Below are positions 41,858 through 55,100 of a DNA stretch of 64,000 bases, piece by piece. Position 1 is the first letter of the stretch. The number at the start of each line of letters is the position of its first letter. The stretch comes from an uncultured cyanobacterium (GTDB lineage: Bacteria; Cyanobacteriota; Cyanobacteriia; Pseudanabaenales; Pseudanabaenaceae). Made by a program: the position numbers and the translations under genes. The stretch covers positions 3,648,001-3,712,000 of the forward strand of contig OY969811.1 in the NCBI GenBank assembly GCA_963703315.1, given 5' to 3'. The notes beneath the pieces were generated by a model that had not been told where the DNA came from, did not search any database, and was given only the letters and a program-made list of their open reading frames with translations.

Positions 41858-42601
41858 ATGATTTCTCAAACTGGGCGCATTCATTCAATTGAAACTTTTG
41901 GGACAGTAGACGGACCGGGGATCAGGTTTATTGTATTTACACAGGGCTGTCCCCTGCGTTGTCTCTATTGCCATAACCCCGACTGTCGTAATGCCCATGA
42001 TGGCAAAGAAGTTACCGTTGATTATTTAATTGACGAGATTAAAAAATGTAAATCCTTCATTCGCAAAGGGGGCGTAACTGTAAGCGGCGGTGAACCCTTG
42101 ATGCAACCCGAATTTACCAGAGAAATATTTCGGCGTTGCCATGAGCTTGGCTTACATACTGCCCTTGATACATCGGGTTACTGTGCGATCGAGGTGGCGC
42201 AACCCGTTCTCGAAGAAACTGACTTGGTGCTGCTGGATATCAAATCCTACATTCCCGAACTCTATTACCAAGTTACCAGCGTTTCCATCGAGCCAACACT
42301 TTCAATGGCAAGGTATCTCAGTGACATTGGCAAGCCTGTTTGGATCAGATTTGTGTTAGTCCCGCACCTCACCGATAATCTCGACAATATCAATCAACTG
42401 GCTGACTTTATCGCCACACTCAAAAATATAGAAAGATTAGAGGTTTTACCATTTCATAAAATGGGAGAATATAAGTGGGAACAGTTGGGCTTGCCCTATT
42501 CCCTCAAAGACACACCACCTGCACCGCCCGAACTTGTACAGCAGACCGTTGATATCTTTCGCGATCGCGGGATCAATGCCCTTGGTGCAGTTGGGATTTA
42601 A
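41858..42601 (+). CDS. pflA: Pyruvate formate-lyase activating enzyme
   Basis: GTVDGPGIRF, GCPLRCLYCHNPD, SGGEP, LPFHKMG. Confidence 0.93.
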   Translation: MISQTGRIHSIETFGTVDGPGIRFIVFTQGCPLRCLYCHNPDCRNAHDGKEVTVDYLIDEIKKCKSFIRKGGVTVSGGEPLMQPEFTREIFRRCHELGLHTALDTSGYCAIEVAQPVLEETDLVLLDIKSYIPELYYQVTSVSIEPTLSMARYLSDIGKPVWIRFVLVPHLTDNLDNINQLADFIATLKNIERLEVLPFHKMGEYKWEQLGLPYSLKDTPPAPPELVQQTVDIFRDRGINALGAVGI

Positions 42602-42653
42602 TGACCTGCTCCCAATATCCGAATAAACCTAAATTATTAGGAGGTAAGGGGTT

Positions 42654-43103
42654 ATGCTACACAAACATCATGAACAATATCAAGAGAAAATCATTTCCCT
42701 TTGGGTTGTGTTTTTGCTAGGTTTACTCTTCCATACCCAGCTAGGATTAATGCCCTTATTTCACGGGCTAAACATCATCACATCCCAGTCTCAGAATATG
42801 GCAGAGATTGCTCCGATTATGTGGTTGATGCTAAGTTTCTTTGTGCTGCCAATGGCGGCAATCATCGGTACTGTTTTCACTAATTCAAGGGGCTATCGCA
42901 CGATCCACTTTGGTTTTACGGTACTTTACACCATGTTAAATTTTTCCCATCTCATTGCCGATATCATGGTGCGGACTGATTTATATCAAATCGCACTCAT
43001 GGCGATTCTATTCGCGATCGGGCTTTTGATTAATCTAGTTTCTTGGCAATGGATGCGCGATCGCTCCCACAGATCCACCCATCAACATCTACAGCATTCT
43101 TGA
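42654..43103 (+). CDS. Hypothetical membrane protein (~4 TM)
   Basis: Hydrophobic segments, AGGAGG RBS. Confidence 0.75.
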   Translation: MLHKHHEQYQEKIISLWVVFLLGLLFHTQLGLMPLFHGLNIITSQSQNMAEIAPIMWLMLSFFVLPMAAIIGTVFTNSRGYRTIHFGFTVLYTMLNFSHLIADIMVRTDLYQIALMAILFAIGLLINLVSWQWMRDRSHRSTHQHLQHS

Positions 43104-43140
43104 CAATCTATTTGTTAGTAAATACAATGTAATTACTAAC
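43100..43140 (+). promoter_or_regulatory. mazEF-like promoter with palindromic operator
   Basis: TTGACA-17-TACAAT; palindrome GTTAGTAAATACA-A-TGTAATTACTAAC (43114-43140). Confidence 0.7.
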
Positions 43141-43153
43141 CGCAATCCACATT

Positions 43154-43414
43154 ATGAGTACAGCTATTAGAACTCGAATTGTTAAGATTGGAAATTCTCA
43201 AGGTGTGCGTATTCCTAAATTGCTCCTAGAGCAAAGTGGTATTCATACAGAAGTTGAGATCGAAGTTGAGGGAGATCATCTAACTATTCGCCAAGTCAGA
43301 CATCCCCGCGCAGGATGGGATCAAGCCTTTGCCCAGATGGCGCAAAACCATGATGATGTGCTTTTAGACGAAGTTAGTACAACTGAATGGGATCAAGTTG
43401 AATGGGAGTGGTAA
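43154..43414 (+). CDS. AbrB/MazE-family antitoxin
   Basis: RIVKIGNSQGVRIPK, PRAGW, WD..EWEW. Confidence 0.92.
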   Translation: MSTAIRTRIVKIGNSQGVRIPKLLLEQSGIHTEVEIEVEGDHLTIRQVRHPRAGWDQAFAQMAQNHDDVLLDEVSTTEWDQVEWEW

Positions 43415-43731
43415 TTACAAGATTTGATGTTGTCTTAGTCAATCTTGATCCCACCATTGGTAGTGAAATTCAGAAGACACGCCCCTGTCTTGTCATTTCC
43501 CCTGATCAAATGAATCTCCATATTTCCACAGTCATAATTGCTCCAATGACGACAAAAGGGAAAGTATATCCTAGTCGGATCAATTGTCAGTTTCAAGGCA
43601 AAAATGGGCAAATAGTTCTAGATCAGATCCGTACTATTGATAAAACTCGATTGGTCAAGAAATTGGGGCGAATTAATCAAGATGAACAAAAATTAGTACT
43701 TGCCACCTTAGCTAAAATGTTTGCTGAGTAG
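43402..43731 (+). CDS. PemK/MazF-family toxin
   Basis: LDPTIGSEIQKTRPCLVISP, APMT, DQIRTIDK.RL. Confidence 0.93.
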   Translation: MGVVITRFDVVLVNLDPTIGSEIQKTRPCLVISPDQMNLHISTVIIAPMTTKGKVYPSRINCQFQGKNGQIVLDQIRTIDKTRLVKKLGRINQDEQKLVLATLAKMFAE

Positions 43732-43848
43732 GCTTTTAAATCATTTAAGAATTGTACAGATCCCTCTCAAATGCAGACAGAATCCTTTTCAAGGGGGACT
43801 GGAGGGATCTCTTAGGGATTGCAACAAAAATATTAATGGGAACTGAGC

Positions 43849-46440
43849 ATGAAAGTTACGAATATCGAAGAATTGGAATCGCTGATTCAACGGGTGAAGA
43901 TTGCCCAAGCAAAATTTGCTGATTTTACCCAAGAGCAGGTCGATCGCATCTTTAAACAGGCAGCACTGGCGGCTAATGCAGCGCGGATTCCCCTAGCCAA
44001 GGCAGCAGTGAAAGAGTCGGGTATGGGCGTAATCGAAGACAAGGCGATTAAAAATCACTTTGCTTCGGAAATGATTTACAACAAGTATAAGAACGATAAA
44101 ACTTGTGGTGTAATTGAGTCGGACAAGCATTTTGGCTATGAGCGCATTGCTGAACCTGTGGGACTTTTAGCGGGGATCGTGCCTGTTACCAATCCCACAT
44201 CAACGACGATTTTCAAAGCGTTGATCTCGCTAAAAACCAGAAATGGAATTATTTTCTCGCCGCATCCCCATGCGAAGGAATGCACGATCGCCGCAGCGAA
44301 AATTGTCCTAGAGGCAGCCGTCGCCGCAGGTGCGCCCCCCGATATCATTGGCTGGATTGATGAGCCGACCGTGCCACTCTCTCAAGCCTTGATGCAGAAT
44401 CCGAACATTAAGTTGATTCTGGCAACAGGTGGACCGGGCATGGTCAAAGCCGCCTATTCTTCAGGACATCCTTCCATCGGTGTTGGTGCTGGCAATACTC
44501 CCGCGATCATTGATGAAACCGCCCATATTCAGATGGCGGTAAGTTCGATCATTCTCAGTAAGACCTTTGACAATGGCACGATTTGCGCCTCGGAACAATC
44601 GGTGGTGGTGGTTGATGCAATTTATGAAGAAGTAAGAGAGGAATTTATTAAGCGTGGGGCTTATTTCCTGAATGCAGAGGAACGCGATCTCATTCGTCAG
44701 GTGATTTTGACCGATGGGCGCTTGAATGCGGCGATTGTCGGTCAATCGGTGCAAAAAATTGCGGAAGTTGCGGGATTTACGATCGCTGACAATACTAGGG
44801 TTTTGATTGGGGAAGTTGAGGTGATCGATAAGGATGAACCCTTTGCCTATGAGAAATTGTCGCCAATTTTAGCGATGTATCGGGCGAAGGATTTCCATGA
44901 TGCAGTGGACAAAGCCGATGCCCTCGTTCTATTTGGCGGACATGGACATACTTCGGTACTGTATACGGCTCCTAATAATCAGGAACATATTCGTTATTTT
45001 GAGGCGAAGTTAGAAACATCACGGGTACTGATTAATACGCCATCGTCACAGGGGGCGATCGGTGATCTTTATAATTTCCGTCTTGATCCCTCGCTAACTC
45101 TTGGTTGTGGCTCTTGGGGTGGAAATTCCGTTTCTGCAAACGTCACGCCTCACCATTTGCTGAATGTGAAAACCGCCGCCGAACGCCGCGAGAATATGCT
45201 GTGGTTTCGCATTCCACCCAAAATTTACTTCAAATCTGGCTGCTTGCCTGTGGCATTGCGGGATCTCGCAGGCAAAAAACGCGCTTTAATTGTCACCGAT
45301 CGCCCTTTATTTGAACTTGGCTTAACTAAAGAAGTCACCGATAGCTTAGAAGAAGTCGGACTAGCTCACTACACCTTTTACGATGTCGAACCCGATCCTT
45401 CTTTGGCAACGGTGCGGAAAGGACTAGCGATCTGCAATAGTTTCCAGCCCGACGTGATCATTGCCTTTGGTGGGGGATCGCCGATGGATGCCGCCAAAAT
45501 CATGTGGCTGCTATACGAACATCCTGAAATCGAGTTTGAAGGCTTGGCGATGCGATTTATGGATATTCGCAAACGGGTCTATGAGTTGCCTCCTTTGGGC
45601 GCAAAAGCAATGCTGGTTGCTGTTCCCACCACATCGGGAACGGGTTCAGAAGTAACACCTTTTGCCGTAGTTACCGACGAAAAAACGGGGATCAAGTATC
45701 CTCTCGCTGATTATGCCTTGACTCCAAATATGGCGATCGTCGATCCCGAATTGACCGCTAATATTCCTAAACGCCTTACCGCTTACGGTGGTATTGATGC
45801 CCTCACCCATGCGATCGAGGCGTACGTTTCCGTATTGGCTTCAGAATATACCAATGGATTGTCTCTCGAAGCAATTCGTTTACTGTTCAAATATCTACCC
45901 AGTGCCTACAAGAATGGCGCAAATGATCCTAAAGCCAGAGAAAAAGTGCATTACGCCGCCACGATCGCAGGGTTAGCTTTTGCCAATGCCTTCTTAGGTG
46001 TGTGTCACTCGATCGCCCACCAATTGGGTGGTACTTGCCACATTGCTCACGGTTTGGCTAATGCCTTGATGATTAGTCATGTGATTCGTTACAACGCCAC
46101 CGATGTTCCCTTTAAGCAAGCGATCTTCTCACAGAATAAGTATCCCAATAGCAAATGGCGCTATGCAAGGATTGCCGACTATCTGAATTTAGGCGGTGCG
46201 AATGAAGAGGAAAAAGTGGTGAATCTGATTGCGGCGATCGAAGATCTCAAGCGGCAAGTGGATATTCCTGCCACGATTAAGGATGCACTGGCTGAGCAAG
46301 GTATCGGTGAAGAGTTCTTCATGGCTCATGTCGAAGATATGGCGGATCAAGCCTTTGATGATCAATGTACGGGTGCAAATCCCCGCTATCCATTGATTGC
46401 TGACCTTAAGCAGCTAATGCTACAGGCATACAGTGGTTAG
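43849..46440 (+). CDS. adhE: Bifunctional acetaldehyde-CoA/alcohol dehydrogenase
   Basis: TNPTST, ATGG, GVGAGN, ICASE, GGGSPMD, PTTSGTGSE, DALTH. Confidence 0.97.
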   Translation: MKVTNIEELESLIQRVKIAQAKFADFTQEQVDRIFKQAALAANAARIPLAKAAVKESGMGVIEDKAIKNHFASEMIYNKYKNDKTCGVIESDKHFGYERIAEPVGLLAGIVPVTNPTSTTIFKALISLKTRNGIIFSPHPHAKECTIAAAKIVLEAAVAAGAPPDIIGWIDEPTVPLSQALMQNPNIKLILATGGPGMVKAAYSSGHPSIGVGAGNTPAIIDETAHIQMAVSSIILSKTFDNGTICASEQSVVVVDAIYEEVREEFIKRGAYFLNAEERDLIRQVILTDGRLNAAIVGQSVQKIAEVAGFTIADNTRVLIGEVEVIDKDEPFAYEKLSPILAMYRAKDFHDAVDKADALVLFGGHGHTSVLYTAPNNQEHIRYFEAKLETSRVLINTPSSQGAIGDLYNFRLDPSLTLGCGSWGGNSVSANVTPHHLLNVKTAAERRENMLWFRIPPKIYFKSGCLPVALRDLAGKKRALIVTDRPLFELGLTKEVTDSLEEVGLAHYTFYDVEPDPSLATVRKGLAICNSFQPDVIIAFGGGSPMDAAKIMWLLYEHPEIEFEGLAMRFMDIRKRVYELPPLGAKAMLVAVPTTSGTGSEVTPFAVVTDEKTGIKYPLADYALTPNMAIVDPELTANIPKRLTAYGGIDALTHAIEAYVSVLASEYTNGLSLEAIRLLFKYLPSAYKNGANDPKAREKVHYAATIAGLAFANAFLGVCHSIAHQLGGTCHIAHGLANALMISHVIRYNATDVPFKQAIFSQNKYPNSKWRYARIADYLNLGGANEEEKVVNLIAAIEDLKRQVDIPATIKDALAEQGIGEEFFMAHVEDMADQAFDDQCTGANPRYPLIADLKQLMLQAYSG

Positions 46441-46441
46441 G

Positions 46442-46488
46442 TAAATAATGAGTGATGCGCGGCTAAGCCGCGCATCACTCATTATTTA
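46442..46488 (+). terminator. 22-bp perfect hairpin after adhE
   Basis: TAAATAATGAGTGATGCGCGGC-TAA-GCCGCGCATCACTCATTATTTA. Confidence 0.6.
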
Positions 46489-46599
46489 TTGGGAATAGAT
46501 TATTTTGGCGATCGCCAAAATCCTTAACATAACTTAGCTTGACATTATACATAGGTATAAACTCTAGGATACTGCCACATAAGTTTTGTGGAAATGCCG

Positions 46600-47328
46600 A
46601 TGAGTCACCTAGCTACCCGTCTACGCGAAGGTACGCAAAAATCCCATACTGCTGCCGAGAATACTGCATTTATGAAGTGCTTTCTCAAAGGCATTGTCGA
46701 GATCGTTCCTTTTAGAAAATTATTAGCAAATCTCTATCTTGTTTACAGTACACTCGAAGCAGAATTAAAGTGTCATTCGCAACATCCCATAGTTGGGAAA
46801 ATGCATTTTCCAGAACTTGATCGCCAACAAAGTTTAGAACAGGATTTAGCTTTCTATTATGGCGATAATTGGCGATCGCAAATTGTGCCTTTAAACGCTG
46901 GACAGGCTTATGTTGATCGCCTCAAGGAAATTTCTAATACTTATCCTGAACTACTGATTGCCCATTCCTATACGCGCTATATGGGCGATCTTTCAGGTGG
47001 TCAAGCCTTGAAGCATATTGTGCGTTCGGCTCTGGATTTGCCTAGCGATCGCGGTACAACTTTTTATGAATTTGACCAATTGCCGACGGTAGAAGCAAAG
47101 CGGGACTTTAAAGAGAAATATCGTCAAGCTTTAGATTCTCTTTCTTTGGATGAAGCAACGATTTTAGCAATTGTAGAAGAAGCAAATTACGCTTTTACCC
47201 TCAATCGGAATGTGGTCGATGAGTTGGAAGCAGATGTTAAAGCCGTACTTGATCCCCATGTATTTGAATTGCTGACTAAGCAGGATCGGGCAGGTAGCAC
47301 TGAGCGCCATCATAGTCACGCTGCATAG
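46600..47328 (+). CDS. Heme oxygenase (biliverdin-producing), low-O2 HO2-type by context
   Basis: LREGT.KSH..AEN, YTRYMGDLSGGQ, EEANYAF.LN. Confidence 0.92.
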   Translation: MSHLATRLREGTQKSHTAAENTAFMKCFLKGIVEIVPFRKLLANLYLVYSTLEAELKCHSQHPIVGKMHFPELDRQQSLEQDLAFYYGDNWRSQIVPLNAGQAYVDRLKEISNTYPELLIAHSYTRYMGDLSGGQALKHIVRSALDLPSDRGTTFYEFDQLPTVEAKRDFKEKYRQALDSLSLDEATILAIVEEANYAFTLNRNVVDELEADVKAVLDPHVFELLTKQDRAGSTERHHSHAA

Positions 47329-47334
47329 AAATCA

Positions 47335-47369
47335 TCAGAATAAACAGCGCTTCGCGCTGTTTATTCTGA
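47335..47369. repeat. Perfect intercistronic hairpin
   Basis: TCAGAATAAACAGCGC-TTC-GCGCTGTTTATTCTGA. Confidence 0.65.
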
Positions 47370-47391
47370 AATATTTATAGGAATTGAATGA

Positions 47392-48792
47392 ATGACTACA
47401 ACCACACAGACAGTTAAATTTGATATTAATCTCTTACATAAATATAATCAGCCCGTCCCCAGATATACCAGTTATCCCCCCGCAACAGAGTTAAACGAAA
47501 ACTTTCAACAAATCGATTTTCGAGGCGCGATCACGGCAGGTAATTTGCAGAAAACGCCTTTATCTCTCTATGCTCACATTCCCTTTTGTGATACCCCCTG
47601 TTATTTCTGCGGTTGCAATACTGTAATTAGCACTCGCAAGGAAATTGCGGAACCTTATTTAGGTTATCTAATTCGCCATATTGAGCAGGTTGCGGCAACG
47701 GTAGATCGCGATCGCCTAGTCCAGCAAATGCACTGGGGCGGAGGCACTCCTAACTATTTCTCCTTTGATCAAGTGGAAAGATTATGGCAAAGTTTTCAAT
47801 CGCATTTTACTTTTGCCGCCGATGCGGAAATTTCCATTGAAGTAAACCCGCGATCGCTGACTAAGGAATATTTACAAGGTTTACGCAATCTCGGTTTTAA
47901 CCGCATCAGTTTTGGCATTCAGGATTTTAATCCACAGGTTCAAGAAGCAGTTAATCGCATTCAGCCCGAAGAGATGCTATTTGAAGGAATGCGTTGGATG
48001 CGTGAAGTGGGCTTTGAAGGTGTGAATGTCGATTTAATCTATGGCTTACCCTATCAAACCCTAGAGACATTCCGCGAAACCCTCGATAAAACCATTGCTC
48101 TTGATCCCGATCGCATTGCGGTATTTAATTTTGCTTATGTGCCTTGGCTAAAGCCATTGCAGAAAAAGAAGATCGATCCCAACACTTTGCCTTCCCCTGA
48201 AGAGAAGTTGCAAATTATGCAAATGACAATTGAGACTTTAACCAATCATGGTTATGTATTTATTGGCATGGATCACTTTGCTAAGCCCAATGATGAATTG
48301 GCGATCGCCCAACGTCAAGGCAACTTACATCGCAATTTCCAAGGCTATACCACCAAGCCCGAATCTGATCTTTTAGGCTTTGGCATGACTTCTATCAGTA
48401 TGCTCCAAAATGTCTATACCCAAAATCATAAAGGGATACAGGACTTTTACAAAGCGATCGATGCAGGGCAATTACCGATTGAGCGTGGTGTCACCCTCAA
48501 TGCCGATGATATTTTGCGGCGTTCGATCATTATGGAATTGATGTGTCAATTTGAACTATCCCAGCAAGAAATTGAAGCCAAATATCATTTAACCTGCGAT
48601 CGCGATTTTGGTAAATATTTTGAGCCAGAACGCTTGAAACTGCGTCAGTTGGAAGCTGATGGTTTGATCGAACTAGAACGCGATCGCATTGAAGTCACTC
48701 CTGCGGGAAGGTTACTAATTCGCAATATTGCCTCGGTCTTTGATAGCTATCTCGCCAAAAATGACATAGGAAGATTCTCGAAATCAATTTAA
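47392..48792 (+). CDS. hemN: Oxygen-independent coproporphyrinogen III oxidase
   Basis: PRYTSYP, HIPFC..CYFCGC, GGGTP, GMDHF, RNFQGY. Confidence 0.96.
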   Translation: MTTTTQTVKFDINLLHKYNQPVPRYTSYPPATELNENFQQIDFRGAITAGNLQKTPLSLYAHIPFCDTPCYFCGCNTVISTRKEIAEPYLGYLIRHIEQVAATVDRDRLVQQMHWGGGTPNYFSFDQVERLWQSFQSHFTFAADAEISIEVNPRSLTKEYLQGLRNLGFNRISFGIQDFNPQVQEAVNRIQPEEMLFEGMRWMREVGFEGVNVDLIYGLPYQTLETFRETLDKTIALDPDRIAVFNFAYVPWLKPLQKKKIDPNTLPSPEEKLQIMQMTIETLTNHGYVFIGMDHFAKPNDELAIAQRQGNLHRNFQGYTTKPESDLLGFGMTSISMLQNVYTQNHKGIQDFYKAIDAGQLPIERGVTLNADDILRRSIIMELMCQFELSQQEIEAKYHLTCDRDFGKYFEPERLKLRQLEADGLIELERDRIEVTPAGRLLIRNIASVFDSYLAKNDIGRFSKSI

Positions 48793-48796
48793 ATCT

Positions 48797-49216
48797 ATGA
48801 CCACTACTTTGACAAAACCGATCGCTTACTGGCAACAAGAATATGTAACTGGTAACTCACAGGTTGATGGACAACATCAGCAAATCTTTGAGATTGTCAA
48901 TGCCCTCCATGATGCTGTAATTACCAAGAAAAATGTTTATAGATTACAAGATCTTCTGGAATGTCTAGCCAATCACACCATCGAACATTTTCAAACGGAA
49001 GAGTCTTTGATGATGGCAGTGGACTATCCCGATTATGATCGCCACAAGCAAACCCACGATAACTTGGTAGCCAAAGTCGATAATTTACTTCTCAAATTTC
49101 GCGATCGGAATACAAAAGTCATCACCACAGAAATCACTCAATTTCTCACTGAATGGTTGGCTCACCATATCAAAGGCGAAGACCAGAAAATGATTCAGTT
49201 TTTGCAAAATAATTGA
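48797..49216 (+). CDS. Bacteriohemerythrin
   Basis: D.QH, HF..EE, H...H, WL.HHI..ED di-iron ligands. Confidence 0.92.
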   Translation: MTTTLTKPIAYWQQEYVTGNSQVDGQHQQIFEIVNALHDAVITKKNVYRLQDLLECLANHTIEHFQTEESLMMAVDYPDYDRHKQTHDNLVAKVDNLLLKFRDRNTKVITTEITQFLTEWLAHHIKGEDQKMIQFLQNN

Positions 49217-49249
49217 TCCCTCCTCCCAGCCCCTTAAATAATTACTACT

Positions 49250-50326
49250 ATGGTTTCCATTCAATCTCGCCCCGAACCTGAACTACTCCGTGATGGCATC
49301 AAAGTTCCTGTTAAAGAAACCCTCTTAACTCCCAGATTCTATACCACTGACTATGACAAGGTTGCAAAGATGGATACTTCTTTGCAGCAAGCGGAACTCG
49401 AAGCCGTTGTCGAAGAACTGCGTACCGACTACAATCGCAATCACTTCAAACGCGACCAAGAATTTGAACAATCTTGGGAGCATATTGATCAAGAAACCCG
49501 TGCTGCCTTCATTGACTTTTTAGAACGTTCTTGCACCTCTGAGTTTTCAGGTTTTTTGCTATTTAAGGAATTATCCCGTCAACTCAAAGATCGGAATCCT
49601 TTACTATCTGAAGCTTTTAACCTCATGGCAAGAGATGAAGCACGCCATGCAGGCTTCTTAAATAAAGCAATGAAGGATTTTCATTTGTCGCTAGATTTGG
49701 TCAATATGACTAAAAAACGTAGCTATACCTTCTTCAAGCCAGAATGGGTAATCTATTCCGTTTATCTGTCTGAGAAGATTGGTTACTGGCGCTATATTCT
49801 CGTGCATTATCATATGCAAAATCATCCTGAAAACCGCTTCTATCCTCTATTCAAATATTTTGAAAGCTGGTGTCAAGATGAGAACCGTCATGGTGATTTC
49901 TTTAAAGTACTATTGCGATCGCAGCCTGATTTATGGGGTACATGGCAAGCCAAACTCTGGGCGCGTTTCTTCCTCTTGACGGTATTTGCCACCCATACAA
50001 TCACCGTATTTGAACGGGCTGATTTCTATAAATCCATTGGTTTAGATGCTCGCCAATACAATAAAGAAGTCGTGGTCAATACCAATCACACCGCCATTAG
50101 TGCCTTCCCTGCGGTACTAGATACCAGTCATCCCGACTTTTTCCCTAGATTAGAGAAATGTGTTGATTATAATTTCAAGTTGATGGCAATTAATGAAAGC
50201 GATCGCCCTCAATTTGTGAAGACCTTACAGAAGTTACCTTTATTCTTGGCGATTGTCTGGCAGTTGCTATTGGTGTATTTAATCAAGCCCATTGATGCTG
50301 AAGCTCAACGTGGCAAAGTTCATTAA
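49250..50326 (+). CDS. acsF: Mg-protoporphyrin IX monomethyl ester oxidative cyclase
   Basis: LLTPRFYTTD, EFSGFLL, RDEARHAG, LSEKIGYWRY, QDENRHGD. Confidence 0.96.
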   Translation: MVSIQSRPEPELLRDGIKVPVKETLLTPRFYTTDYDKVAKMDTSLQQAELEAVVEELRTDYNRNHFKRDQEFEQSWEHIDQETRAAFIDFLERSCTSEFSGFLLFKELSRQLKDRNPLLSEAFNLMARDEARHAGFLNKAMKDFHLSLDLVNMTKKRSYTFFKPEWVIYSVYLSEKIGYWRYILVHYHMQNHPENRFYPLFKYFESWCQDENRHGDFFKVLLRSQPDLWGTWQAKLWARFFLLTVFATHTITVFERADFYKSIGLDARQYNKEVVVNTNHTAISAFPAVLDTSHPDFFPRLEKCVDYNFKLMAINESDRPQFVKTLQKLPLFLAIVWQLLLVYLIKPIDAEAQRGKVH

Positions 50327-50360
50327 CAAAAAAAGCGGTGCAATGCACCGCTTTTTTTTG
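50325..50360. terminator. Bidirectional terminator hairpin
   Basis: AAAAAAAGCGGTGC-AAT-GCACCGCTTTTTTTT between convergent genes. Confidence 0.75.
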
Positions 50361-50361
50361 T

Positions 50362-50446
50362 TATAGCGCTTTTCAAGCAAGCGAGTTACACAGAATTGTT
50401 TCCCCGCCAAAGGTTGGGAAACAATTCTGTACTTCATAGCGTTATA
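50362..50446. mobile_element. Second, inverted and partly deleted copy of the 34605 MITE
   Basis: TATAGCGCTTTTCAAGCAAGCGAGTTACA...GTACTTCA matches the reverse complement of the 34605 element. Confidence 0.8.
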
Positions 50447-51503
50447 CGCCAACAGGTGCAGGAATATTACTGAAAGCGCCAACAGAAGGCTTGTTAAATA
50501 CTTGAGCAAGTTGACGAGGAGCGCGATCGCACCAGTTCTTCTTACCATAGACATAACCAGCAATCAAAGGCAATGCCACAGTTGCTTCCGAGTAAACCAT
50601 TTGCTCTTGAACAATATCAACCTTGCCCCAAGAATGTGCTTCCTTCAAAGTCGAACCCGATAGAGCGCCATCGCGTTCATCAGCAACGGTGATTTGGACA
50701 GCATACTTGTGCATTGCTGCCTCAAAACCAAGCAACTCGGCAGCTACTACAGTATCTTGAGCAAAGTTCTTGGGAACACCACCACCGATCATAAATAGAC
50801 CAGTGTGAGGACTTGCCAACTTGCACTGAGTCAATTCACGGAAGTCACGAACGGAGTCAATGCTAACGTGTTCTTCAGGAGAGAACCACTGATGATGGAC
50901 TAAGCCAAAACCTGCGGAACAATCGCTGAAAGCGGGAACGAAGATAGGAACTTGATGCTCGTAAGCTGCCAATACGACAGAGTGACGGTTTTTAGCATTT
51001 TTGTCGAGATATGCACCCATCTCATGGATGAACTCGCGAGAAGAGTAAGGGCGAGGAGGAAGGGAATTAGCAATTTTAGCGATCGTCATGTCGCAAATAC
51101 GCAATTCATCTTCATCGATGTAGGTGTCATAGATGCGATCGATCGCATTTTCGCGGAGTACGGTATCGTCCGCAAAGGTGTCACCAACGTAGTGATTAAA
51201 ACCGAGGGCTTCAAAGAAATCTTGGTCAACGATGTTTGCGCCTGTAGAGACAATCATGTCTACCATGTTGTTGGCGATTAGGTCGTAGACAACACCCTTG
51301 AGTCCCGCACTAAATAAAGAACCTGCCAAGCACAAGATGATCGCGCAATCTTTGTCCTTGATCATATCGTCATAGATATGCGCTGCACGTCCAAGGTTAC
51401 GACCTTGAAAAGCAGTATTTGCCATTGCGTCAACCAATCCGACCACATCAAAGGATTTGATGTCAATGTGTTTTACAGTCTGCTTAAGTAGTTCGCGTTT
51501 CAT
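50442..51503 (-). CDS. Deoxyhypusine-synthase-like polyamine synthase
   Basis: VSTGAN, DRIYDT, PAFSD, IGGGVPKNFAQ, DGALSG.T..EA.SWGK. Confidence 0.9.
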   Translation of the reverse strand: MKRELLKQTVKHIDIKSFDVVGLVDAMANTAFQGRNLGRAAHIYDDMIKDKDCAIILCLAGSLFSAGLKGVVYDLIANNMVDMIVSTGANIVDQDFFEALGFNHYVGDTFADDTVLRENAIDRIYDTYIDEDELRICDMTIAKIANSLPPRPYSSREFIHEMGAYLDKNAKNRHSVVLAAYEHQVPIFVPAFSDCSAGFGLVHHQWFSPEEHVSIDSVRDFRELTQCKLASPHTGLFMIGGGVPKNFAQDTVVAAELLGFEAAMHKYAVQITVADERDGALSGSTLKEAHSWGKVDIVQEQMVYSEATVALPLIAGYVYGKKNWCDRAPRQLAQVFNKPSVGAFSNIPAPVGV

Positions 51504-51565
51504 GATTCTGTTTGTCCTAGATGCTGTGTGTTGTAAATGTATGCAGGAAAAAAATTTGAGCAGAA

Positions 51566-51748
51566 TTCAATAACAAAACAAGCAGAATCACATACCTATG
51601 GGCTAGGAAATTTTCTCCGCGATAATGTTGGCTTTATGCTTGACAGTCACAATCATTTATCAGTAAAGATGTGATCAAGATAAAAACATTACACACAGAA
51701 ATTTCCTATCCCCAAAGGATTGATTTCTAATGCCTATTCAGTTTTGAA
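51566..51748 (-). ncRNA. Candidate structured 5' leader RNA (183-nt rod hairpin)
   Basis: Long imperfect inverted repeat with several G-U pairs on the minus strand. Confidence 0.5.
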
Positions 51749-52143
51749 AAATATTTAGCCTTCTCTAAATAATGAGAAGCGATCGACCTAGGTTGTTAAC
51801 AGTGGTTACAACCCTAGCAGTTAGAAGGTCGATCGGAACATACTAGGTCCTTCACAGGCATCATCCCAAGAAAGAGTAGGGTCAGACTCACGTCTTTCAC
51901 CCAACTTTAAATTGAGGAGCCAGTCACATCCAAGCAATAAAACCAGTTTTTTCAATTTTTATCTAGCTAAGTGCAAAAAATCCTTATTTATAATAGCACT
52001 CTTTTTGATAAATACAAGCAAAATGGCGCTAGAGAATTTATGTGTAAATAAGTTTAACTTTGTATCAGGAGACTTGTAGAGACTTAAGCCTCCTTCTTGA
52101 AACAAAGATTGAAACAAAGACGTATTTTCATACAGGGACGATC

Positions 52144-55100
52144 ATGATGACAGCGCAGTATCAGGAGGCTCTACACTCTTATGCAGAGGGTCGGTATGAA
52201 GAGGCAATGCGACAGTTTTCAGAATTGTTGTATGAAGATCCTCGCAATCCAAAGCTTCATATCTGGTTAGGTGCAACCTTTCGTAAGGCGGGGAAAATTG
52301 AGTATGCTAAGGTGCAGTATCAACAGGTATTAACGCTCACAGACGATCCAGATTTACTTGATCTTGCGAGTACCTCGCTTGCTCAAATTCAAAACAAATT
52401 AGCAGCTAATAGCTCTCAAAGATCTGCTCCACAAGATGATACTCAGTTAAGCACACCCCAAAAAGCTCCGACAGCCGCAGATCACAAAACTTCAGATCAA
52501 CGTCATGATCTCAAAAAGACTCAGAAGCAAGGATCTATCCCAAATCCCAATAAGCCATTAGCGAATACTTCAAATCATACGGTCAACACCAATGAAGAAA
52601 CCGTTAACTTGAACTTATTAGCTCCTTCTTCTCAGCCGAAAGCTCCTATTCCTAAGAAGGCTAGTGCTGCTAATGGCACGGTTCCGCCACCACCTGCGAT
52701 CGCGGCTCTATTTAAGAATCAACAACCTCAAAACGATCAAGATCATCAGGATAAATCTGGAGTATCACAAAAGGATGAGCCACTAATTGAGGTGATGATA
52801 GCTGATCAGGATATGGAAGAAATAACTGAAAGAGCCACGACTTCTGTCCTCAATGATACGATCGCCAATATTCAAGAAGAGAAGAAAAAAGAGAGCCAGA
52901 AAACGAAAGATCTCAGACCTACGAAAAAGAATAAAAAGAGCAAGCCCCAAGTTGATTCTCCTGCGGTAGAATCAGTATTTTTGGAGATAGACAATCCAAA
53001 TAATGATTACAAAAATCATCGCAAATCTTCTGCCAGCAAGGGTTATACGGCAGTCTCTTTGGAAGATATATTTAAGTTCTCTAGTGTGGGTCAAAAAATC
53101 ACCCTATGGGGAGCTTTAGTTGCGACTATTCCTGCGATCGCTCTCGGATTAGCGACATATCATATCGGTGATAAATTACTACTCAATAAAGTCAGACAAA
53201 CACAGCAATCTGAGGCAACTGCTTTAGCAAGAGTAACGGAAACCTTCATCAAGCAGCAAACTTCAGATGTGGAAGTCTTACAAAAATTGCTAGCTTCAAC
53301 GGAGATGGGAGAAAATACATTACAAAAGCCTGTAAATCCCAATCTCATTAATCAATCTAAACCTCTATCATCCCTACCAACTGCTCAGCAACGTCAATAT
53401 AAGCAACTATTGACAAATCGTTTAAATCTGTACAGCCAAGCTTATCCTGAATACAATAGTATTGCTTTGTTTGACATCAATGGAGAGTTAATTGCTCAGT
53501 CCAGTAAATCTAATACTTTGCAAACGATCGCTCCGAACAAGTTAAGCAAAGCGATCACTACTGATAAGGTATTGCTGAGTAATCCCATATTTGGCAAAGG
53601 TGGAGCGCATTTCTATGCCATCAGAGCGCTTAAAAGCTCGGTTTCTCAAAAAGTAAGTCTGGTTTTACAGGTGGAGATGCCTGTGAAACCATTGATGAAT
53701 GGATTAAATAATATCGTCAGTAATTCTGATAATAGTGGAAATAAAAGTTTTTATCTAGTTGATAGCTTCAATAAATACATTGCTAGTTCCCAATCTGTCC
53801 CAATTGGAGACGATGCGTTAATAGATTTTGCCATGTTGCCTGATTTACGATCTTCACAGTCATCAGAACTCCGAGATTTAGTTAAAGGCGATCGCAACGT
53901 GCAGGTTTTAGCCTACGCACCTGTCCTCAATATGCAGCAGTATGACATATTACCTTGGGATGTACTAACGACTATAGACAAAGCTACAGCGATCGCGGGC
54001 AATCAAAATCTATTGCTAGTAGTTGGCATAGGCATTGCCGCTACACCGTTACTAGTAGCTGCGATCGCTTATATGTTGTCTCGAAAGTTAAGCACTAGAC
54101 TGAAGGATATTCGGGCAGCCTTATCGGATCTAAGACATGGGAACTTAGATGTTAGTTTTGCGGCTCTGAGTGTAGAAGGAAATGATGAACTATCAGATAT
54201 TTCCCTCAGTATTAATAGAATGTCTGAACAGTTCCGCACCATGATGCAAAAGCAGGAGCAGGAAAAGCAACGCTTGCAGTTGCAGGTAACCAAGTTATAT
54301 AAAGTGTTATCGAAGTTGGCAAGGGAAGAAAAACAGGAAATTCAAGATTCAGACCTATCTGATGAGAACATCCTACTACTAGGTAAAAAAGTTCGTTCTG
54401 AAATGGTACAACGCCATGCCGAAGTGGAGAGTTATCGTCATCAGAAAGAAGATCTCCAAGCGCAGTTGATGCAAATGCTGAAAGATGTCCAAACCTTGTC
54501 TGACGGTGATTTAACAGTTTCAACGCGGTCTATTGATGGCAGCCTCACTAATGTGGCGATATTTTTTGATGATGTGATGCGTGGCTTACAAAATATTGTC
54601 ACTCAAGTCAAGTCTTCAGCGAACCAAGTTAATTTTTCTTTGGGGCAGAATGAACAAGCGATCGCCAATTTAGCTAGTGTGTCACAAAGACAGGTCGATA
54701 CAGTCAGTCGATCGCTAACCACTGCCGAAATGTCCAAGCTCGCAGCCAGTAACATTATCAACCATAGTGAGCAAGTAGTTCAGTCATCGCAGCTAGTCAC
54801 CGAAAAGCTATCAGATAGCGATCGCTCGATTGATGCCGTCATGCAAAAAGTCGGTGAGTTACAGCAAACAGTGGCGACAACTGCTAAAAAAATCAAGCAT
54901 TTAGGCACGATATCCCAAAAAGTCGCTAAAGCAATTTCTGCCATCAACGAAATTGCGATTAAGACCAATTTCCTCGCGATTAATGCCACCCTTGAAGCTT
55001 CACGAACAGGAGAGGTGAATAGTGGATTTATGTTAGTTGCGGAAGAGGTCGGAGAATTAGCAGCTCGTTCTGTGGCTGCGACTAAAGAAGTTGAAAGCTT

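Follow-up and report, generated by a model that had tools for sequence, protein, structure and literature searches.

The window analysed here is a stretch of 64,000 nt from the genome of an uncultured cyanobacterium whose nearest named records are those of Pseudanabaena. On its minus strand a speY-type gene starts with an ATG at 51503 and is preceded by a long leader, which runs from a short ORF through helix P1, hairpin H2 with a U-tract and a rod-like hairpin to the ribosome-binding site (RBS) of the gene. The features are as follows.

51990..51998, minus strand: extended -10 promoter box TG-n-TATTAT, from the genus alignment, with a predicted transcription start at ~51983
51821..51955, minus strand: leader ORF of 44 codons with a TTG start, encoding a candidate arrest peptide (...CEGPS, then MFRSTF), from pN/pS and homologues
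51837..51847, minus strand: Pro-Ser-Met codons of this ORF, predicted stall site and predicted anti-RBS strand, from invariance and duplex rank
51780..51835, minus strand: helix P1, consisting of a stem, a conserved bulge and an inner hairpin, from its occurrence in 53 of 64 loci and covariation
51760..51779, minus strand: short hairpin H2 with a conserved 6-bp stem and a variable loop; similar hairpins lie 3' of P1 in other families
51735..51751, minus strand: U-tract and AAyTGAATA motif, doubling as the 5' strand at the base of the rod, from TTTT and motif counts
51566..51748, minus strand: unbranched rod of 183 nt, likely a self-folding spacer, from its fold, the rarity of its shape and covariation in congeners
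51515..51524, minus strand: RBS region of speY, able to pair with the codons of the stall site according to duplex and folding predictions
50442..51503, minus strand: speY-type deoxyhypusine-synthase (DHS) homologue (PRK02492, NCBIfam cut-off passed), predicted to carry out the agmatine-coupling step of homospermidine synthesis

According to PMC13625781, SpeY enzymes couple two agmatines en route to homospermidine and, as cited there, SpeY-made homospermidine is essential for normal nitrogen-fixing growth of Anabaena. The gene in the window is the single DHS-like gene of the source genome. An arginine decarboxylase gene (SpeA) and an agmatine deiminase-family gene are present as well, the latter away from the speY locus, which makes the iminohydrolase route likely. 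A search of the genome identified no gene of the arginase/agmatinase family, no spermidine synthase above cut-off and no HSS-type domain. As judged by its polyamine genes, the predicted repertoire fits a route from agmatine to homospermidine via SpeY. Between speY and the convergent acsF gene, two perfect 15-bp inverted repeats at 50315-50430 are probably terminators or short repeats. Positions 41858-50326 are occupied by a gene cluster of anaerobic or low-oxygen appearance, as judged from translations; AcsF is the sole member that was scanned against families, and the others presumably include a PFL-activating enzyme, AdhE, a heme oxygenase, HemN, a hemerythrin and, at 43154-43731, what we take to be a MazEF-like pair.

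The original prediction for this locus was a 183-nt rod-like hairpin on the sense strand of the gene, ending ~62 nt before the start codon and containing at least five G-U pairs. All of this was confirmed: the minus strand folds into one unbranched hairpin of -61.1 kcal/mol (z -7.4; 0 of 200 shuffled sequences were equally stable) with 74 pairs, five of which are G-U, and ends 62 nt before the ATG, while the plus strand forms a weaker structure (-43.6 kcal/mol, z -4.1). The inner ~30 nt of the 5' arm are paired without interruption, and the predicted restriction of the inner bulges to the 3' arm holds for this rod; in the genus it is a tendency rather than a rule, the 3' arm being the heavier one in 28 of 36 rods of relatives (on average 24.1 versus 20.5 unpaired nt). 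As a control, 3496 non-coding 183-nt segments of the same genome, sampled from 11,576 start positions on both strands, were folded; none reached 70 unbranched pairs (best 69, compared to 74 in the rod), while 335 were of an energy as low as that of the rod. Thus, the shape of the rod is exceptional, its energy is not. The rod occurs once in the genome, and each of 48 congeneric genomes has it at a single locus, so that a multi-copy repeat or MITE, which had been named as an outcome that would speak against the prediction, was rejected. The rod also has no match in Rfam, and the proposal of an uncatalogued structured RNA within a long leader was accordingly borne out. 6S RNA (RF00013) is a rod-like RNA of ~185 nt and, hence, similar in length and shape; however, the rod does not match RF00013, its predicted fold lacks a central bubble, and the 6S RNA of this genome is located elsewhere.

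All 48 genomes covered by the genus search possess the region, and 47 could be used, the remaining contig ending short of the gene. In these congeners the rods are 45-73% identical to the one described here. A z score of -3 or lower was obtained for 43 of 47 (25 shuffles each), 37 form a single hairpin, and in all 47 the sense strand folds more stably than the antisense strand. All but one of the 47 rods measure 172-210 nt, and 52-81 pairs are formed in 46 of 47, with longest perfect helices of 5-15 bp, mostly 8-11. One congener carries a 294-nt version with 109 pairs that is partly branched (L037:1171-1464), and in another (L024) an insertion of ~100 nt with a strong palindromic core resides between rod and RBS. 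Among the 36 unique single-hairpin rods, the two arms of the same rod pair with -38.3 kcal/mol, whereas exchanging arms between genomes that are 40-70% alike gives -25 to -28 and shuffling them -22; the own arm is the best partner in 14 of the 36. In a subgroup of 14 sequences, from which the structure was itself derived, with one 5-bp side helix of it dropped, double changes occur at 10 of 34 pairs, a number not reached in any of 500 shuffles and higher than in all slid controls. RNAalifold returned no consensus pairs for a 29-row alignment of rods, which is probably due to register shifts, and recovered parts of the rod, plus side helices, in subgroups of 9 and 14. A lack of covariation, the second outcome held against the prediction, was not encountered: the arms co-evolve, with compensatory double changes across the congeners. 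The rod thus provides a clean natural case of a structure that is kept while its sequence turns over.

Sequence conservation within the rod is limited to a basal helix of ~14 pairs; the interior has almost no invariant bases, and the genus alignment shows invariant columns only at the base and no conserved loop. An alternative fold with a terminator in the 3' half can be drawn in 11 of 47 congeners, and so is not conserved, and none was found at this locus. In sister genera branched self-folded spacers take the place of the rod, one genus having the basal motif together with a short hairpin, and in some lineages the leader is shorter than 100 nt and has no rod. No long unbranched rod was found among the folded leaders of other lineages, the best having 56 pairs (L133) and none approaching 73, and 18 leaders from other lineages gave no match in Rfam. 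The unbranched rod is genus-specific, whereas the upstream leader ORF and helix P1 are widely shared. This distribution bears on the proposal that the rod is a polyamine sensor, in the form of a riboswitch that binds the polyamine through its bulges. Its position in the leader of a polyamine gene and the lean of the bulges towards the 3' arm would suit such a role, and a covarying structure is present in the 5' leader. However, conserved ligand-binding nucleotides and an alternative fold linked to a terminator were not found, and the leaders folded from other lineages lack an unbranched rod, so that we consider a riboswitch most improbable. What stands of the undescribed cis-regulatory RNA originally proposed is an uncatalogued, covarying, single-copy RNA behind a promoter box; the rod as its sensor does not. 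Based on the drift of the interior and the branched or absent spacers of sister genera, what selection maintains would appear to be a certain length and the ability to fold back, rather than a binding pocket.

Two further explanations for the rod were considered. As a long, G-U-rich duplex whose sole sequence-conserved part is its base, in a genome with three RNase III genes, it could be a site for RNase III or another nuclease, and by cutting the leader off from speY, cleavage would then make the message more stable or relieve its repression. However, the rods contain only short perfect helices, the sister genera have branched spacers, and the 5' basal motif is also present in lineages without a rod (AAyTGAATA occurs in 11 of 63 leaders, mostly rod-less ones), which renders this role improbable. 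Even less probable, in our view, is a domesticated mobile or foldback insertion that has persisted because its self-folding leaves the leader undisturbed. The restriction to one genus, the fast-evolving interior, the complementary termini and the 294-nt version would agree with such an origin; in opposition to it are the single locus per genome, the tight length distribution and the co-evolving arms.

The long structured leader of the original prediction was upheld, but the 44-codon ORF within the same leader had been missed. According to the genus alignment this ORF spans from a TTG at 51955 to a TAA at 51821, and the TTG is aligned in 46 of 47 congeners. Across 39 unique gap-free congener sequences pN/pS is 0.17, and 0.07 for codons 21-44; variable codon positions are third positions in 33 cases versus 16 first and 15 second ones. 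Each of the other five frames is interrupted by stops in all 39 sequences, and the three early in-frame stops of the ORF itself all occur after Pro-Ser. The leader ORF is thus shown to be under purifying selection. A 12-row profile of the peptide identified matches in 173 of 401 cyanobacterial genomes of the class, corresponding to about three quarters of the number of genomes bearing a DHS gene (227 of 401). The tallies of ORF and DHS gene run in parallel in five families (37/37, 38/37, 22/22, 9/9 and 30/32); several families have DHS genes without a detectable leader ORF, and a few genomes have the ORF without a DHS match. We inspected the downstream genes of 60 of the matches listed, picked to span families, and of four loci found earlier. 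In 63 of these 64 a DHS-like ORF follows within ~800 nt, and the remaining one lies at a contig end. The leader ORF precedes both speY subfamilies, as six of the downstream genes were confirmed by NCBIfam (four PRK00770, two PRK02492), the remaining DHS-like ORFs being judged from their N-termini. In two genomes with two DHS genes a leader ORF lies ahead of each: L255 and L056 (G318) and L256 and L124 (G622) are pairs of a PRK02492-type and, by score, a PRK00770-type gene at distant loci, each with its own diverged ORF. No leader ORF was detected upstream of 11 of 14 other PRK02492-type loci, several of which are inside operons. Of 20 further DHS genes, chosen mainly from profile-negative families, 18 likewise showed none in the upstream region. 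Two contigs (L188, L201) with a cyanobacterial leader belong to a MAG titled Rhizobium and are probably mis-binned.

The peptides share the motif W-x-L-x3-L-x3-R-x3-P-x7-CE[GA]PS, in which nine residues (W, L, L, R, P, C, E, P, S) are the same in all 64 sequences; the last block served as the alignment anchor, and the invariance of Pro and Ser results in part from this selection of the loci. Start codons at fixed offsets are TTG in 55 loci, ATG in 5 and GTG in 4. A scan of 40 members revealed no Pfam match and no relevant NCBIfam match, and the 26 database proteins that match the peptide are all unnamed or 'hypothetical'. A search of the main texts of open-access papers identified no description of this speY leader or its control. 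The leader ORF is very probably real and regulatory, and its product is probably an arrest peptide. The conserved core of this control region is likely the leader ORF just upstream of the rod, and not the rod itself.

Helix P1, found in 53 of 64 loci, overlaps the 3' end of the ORF and begins 13 nt downstream of the first nucleotide of the Pro codon. Going by the usual size of ribosome footprints, we take it that the mRNA enters the ribosome at this point when Pro occupies the P site. Of the 10 pairs of P1, 9-10 are retained, with compensatory U-A/C-G swaps at two positions. Its bulge (TAAC core, 51814-51825, minus strand) keeps its sequence across families, remains unpaired in the folds, and might be a candidate contact for a protein or for tertiary structure. 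The predicted promoter at 51990-51998 is supported by the genus alignment, in which TG and TA...T are kept and the middle varies, and there is no indication of a start site downstream of the rod, the start at ~51983 being itself a prediction. Four RNA runs were available, covering contigs of relatives only (share of words 0.06-0.20). In three of them the cover ends at 51940-51974, and in all four it is empty at 51992-52063; this edge would fit a start near 51983 but is not counted as support. Contigs from RNA libraries of three studies connect H2 with the sequence beyond a divergent rod. As these libraries may contain DNA, a transcript across the rod is not demonstrated by them. We also rejected excision of the rod as an explanation for these joints, since where discernible they contain divergent sequence instead (141-149 letters). 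An antisense promoter-like site at 51744-51773 was likewise dismissed, its second box falling into the variable loop of H2.

The segment behind P1 is central to the main rival explanation, in which the same leader peptide acts through transcription attenuation or pausing at H2 and the U-tract. Stalling at high polyamine would then free the 5' arm of H2 and stop transcription, turning speY off, which is the opposite sign to the switch outlined below, and the rod would serve for timing or insulation further downstream. In 39 of 53 loci P1 is followed by a short hairpin and, at a distance of 12-45 nt, by TTTT, compared to a background of 23%; by eye, P1 can be prolonged into the 5' arm of H2 by the codons that follow Ser in many PRK00770-type loci, and feedback by the product would match the eukaryotic PPW and PS* uORFs (PMC11550727). 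On the other hand, no terminator-like site was detected in 51400-52200, the U-tract is 8 nt off the H2 stem in this genus, the RNA-library contigs, with the above reservation about DNA, bridge H2 and the far side of the rod, and P1 and H2 are missing in the short-leader lineages. We regard attenuation as rather unlikely.

The reading we prefer, at a rough probability of 0.45, is a ribosome-stalling switch in which the leader peptide is likely the sensor and the rod likely a self-folding spacer. The leader would be transcribed from ~51983 and the ORF translated from its UUG, both of which are predictions. Without a ribosome, base pairing between the Pro-Ser-Met codons and the speY RBS ~325 nt away would keep translation off, with P1, H2 and the rod folding out the intervening sequence so that stall site and RBS can meet; a ribosome stalled at Pro-Ser would cover the stall codons, leave P1 intact and free the RBS, and speY would be translated. 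The rod may prevent mis-pairing of its 180 nt and bring both ends together. The trigger can only be guessed; it might be the substrate agmatine, in analogy to ornithine and SpeFL, or a shortage of polyamines.

Evidence for the pairing comes from several predictions. Among 2461 start regions of the genome, only 8 match or beat the duplex of stall codons and speY RBS, the 12-mer for this ranking having been chosen after the match was seen. In the best fold of the free leader, pairing of the stall codons with the RBS closes a single multiloop that contains P1, H2 and the rod, and this closure is dominant in 30 of 47 congeners. Two other lineages possess complements of their own: about 11 pairs form across 760-830 nt in L099 and L100, and 8-9 perfect pairs in the short leaders of L053, L055, L105, L106 and L155. 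These short leaders (<100 nt; L053:1300-1490 and counterparts) have an ATG-started ORF ending in PSPC or PSPR, are devoid of P1 and of a long spacer, and their Pro-Ser-Pro codons are perfectly complementary to the RBS over 8-9 nt. When the rod was shuffled, the pairing index dropped from 0.85 to 0.56, with a decrease in 18 of 25 genomes, 21 of which had been picked for high native pairing, which inflates the effect. Other results are less favourable. In equilibrium folds of 23 genomes, masking of the stall site barely opens the RBS (mean unpaired probability 0.29 to 0.30), and over 47 genomes the value changes from 0.35 to 0.40, going up in 15 and down in 7. The Pro codon is CCC or CCG in 18 of 47 congeners, at the cost of one RBS pair that is not compensated. 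At 45 PRK00770-type loci the own RBS pairs no better than swapped or shuffled ones (-10.7, -10.7 and -10.5), and at 18 PRK02492-type loci slightly better than the control (-11.7 versus -10.1). Many PRK00770-type loci (L119-L156) carry a TTTATGC motif ~25-30 nt before the speY ATG that could pair with the Ser-Met codons; at these loci, such pairing shows no excess over controls. Accepting release of the RBS upon stalling as the output would, thus, be tentative. We lean towards an architectural rather than a sensing role for the rod, although a role as spacer leaves unexplained why 180 nt are kept rather than deleted.

To our knowledge, few bacterial metabolite-sensing arrest peptides are known. 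The polyamine example among them is SpeFL, the leader of speF in gamma-proteobacteria, which stalls at termination and needs Rho (bioRxiv 10.1101/604074). In the source genome, which is 99.67% complete, no Rho was found above cut-off. In both systems a short leader ORF directly precedes a gene for polyamine synthesis and is overlapped at its 3' end by a hairpin (here P1, found at 53 of 64 loci); both also have a long spacer (257 nt in SpeFL and 317 nt here) and basic residues upstream of the stall point, which here is a predicted one. The HIRRxxH sensor motif of SpeFL is, however, missing from the column counts of the 64 peptides, the position of the stop varies, the enzyme is a different one and the start is UUG. 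With neither the SpeFL motif nor Rho, the predicted leader resembles SpeFL in its layout but is not a member of that system. Similarly, the odc1 motif of alpha-proteobacteria combines a structured leader, a conserved UUG-started uORF, a polyamine gene and an RBS within a helix, the last being predicted here; its peptide has 11 residues and overlaps the main start, there is no long spacer, and clade and gene are others (PMC8632094).

A C-terminal motif of the Pro-Ser type in a uORF before a polyamine gene is shared with AZIN1 (PPW) and HOL1 (PS*) (PMC11550727). There, scanning and eIF5A are involved, whereas the present leader is bacterial and has at least two codons after Ser, and we regard this as a resemblance only. 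Extrapolating from the conserved peptide to the cyanobacteria at large, it might be speculated, with rather more doubt than for the switch at this locus, that a Rho-independent arrest peptide ending in CE[GA]PS lets the ribosome bind agmatine or homospermidine, with P1 as a brace at the mRNA entry and a distant start site controlled through a long-range helix that is closed by freely evolving self-folding spacers. About three quarters of the sampled cyanobacterial genomes with a DHS gene contain this short element, which makes polyamine sensing in cyanobacteria directly testable. If true, the leader would be a bacterial counterpart of the eukaryotic PS and PPW polyamine uORFs, attached to two different speY subfamilies.
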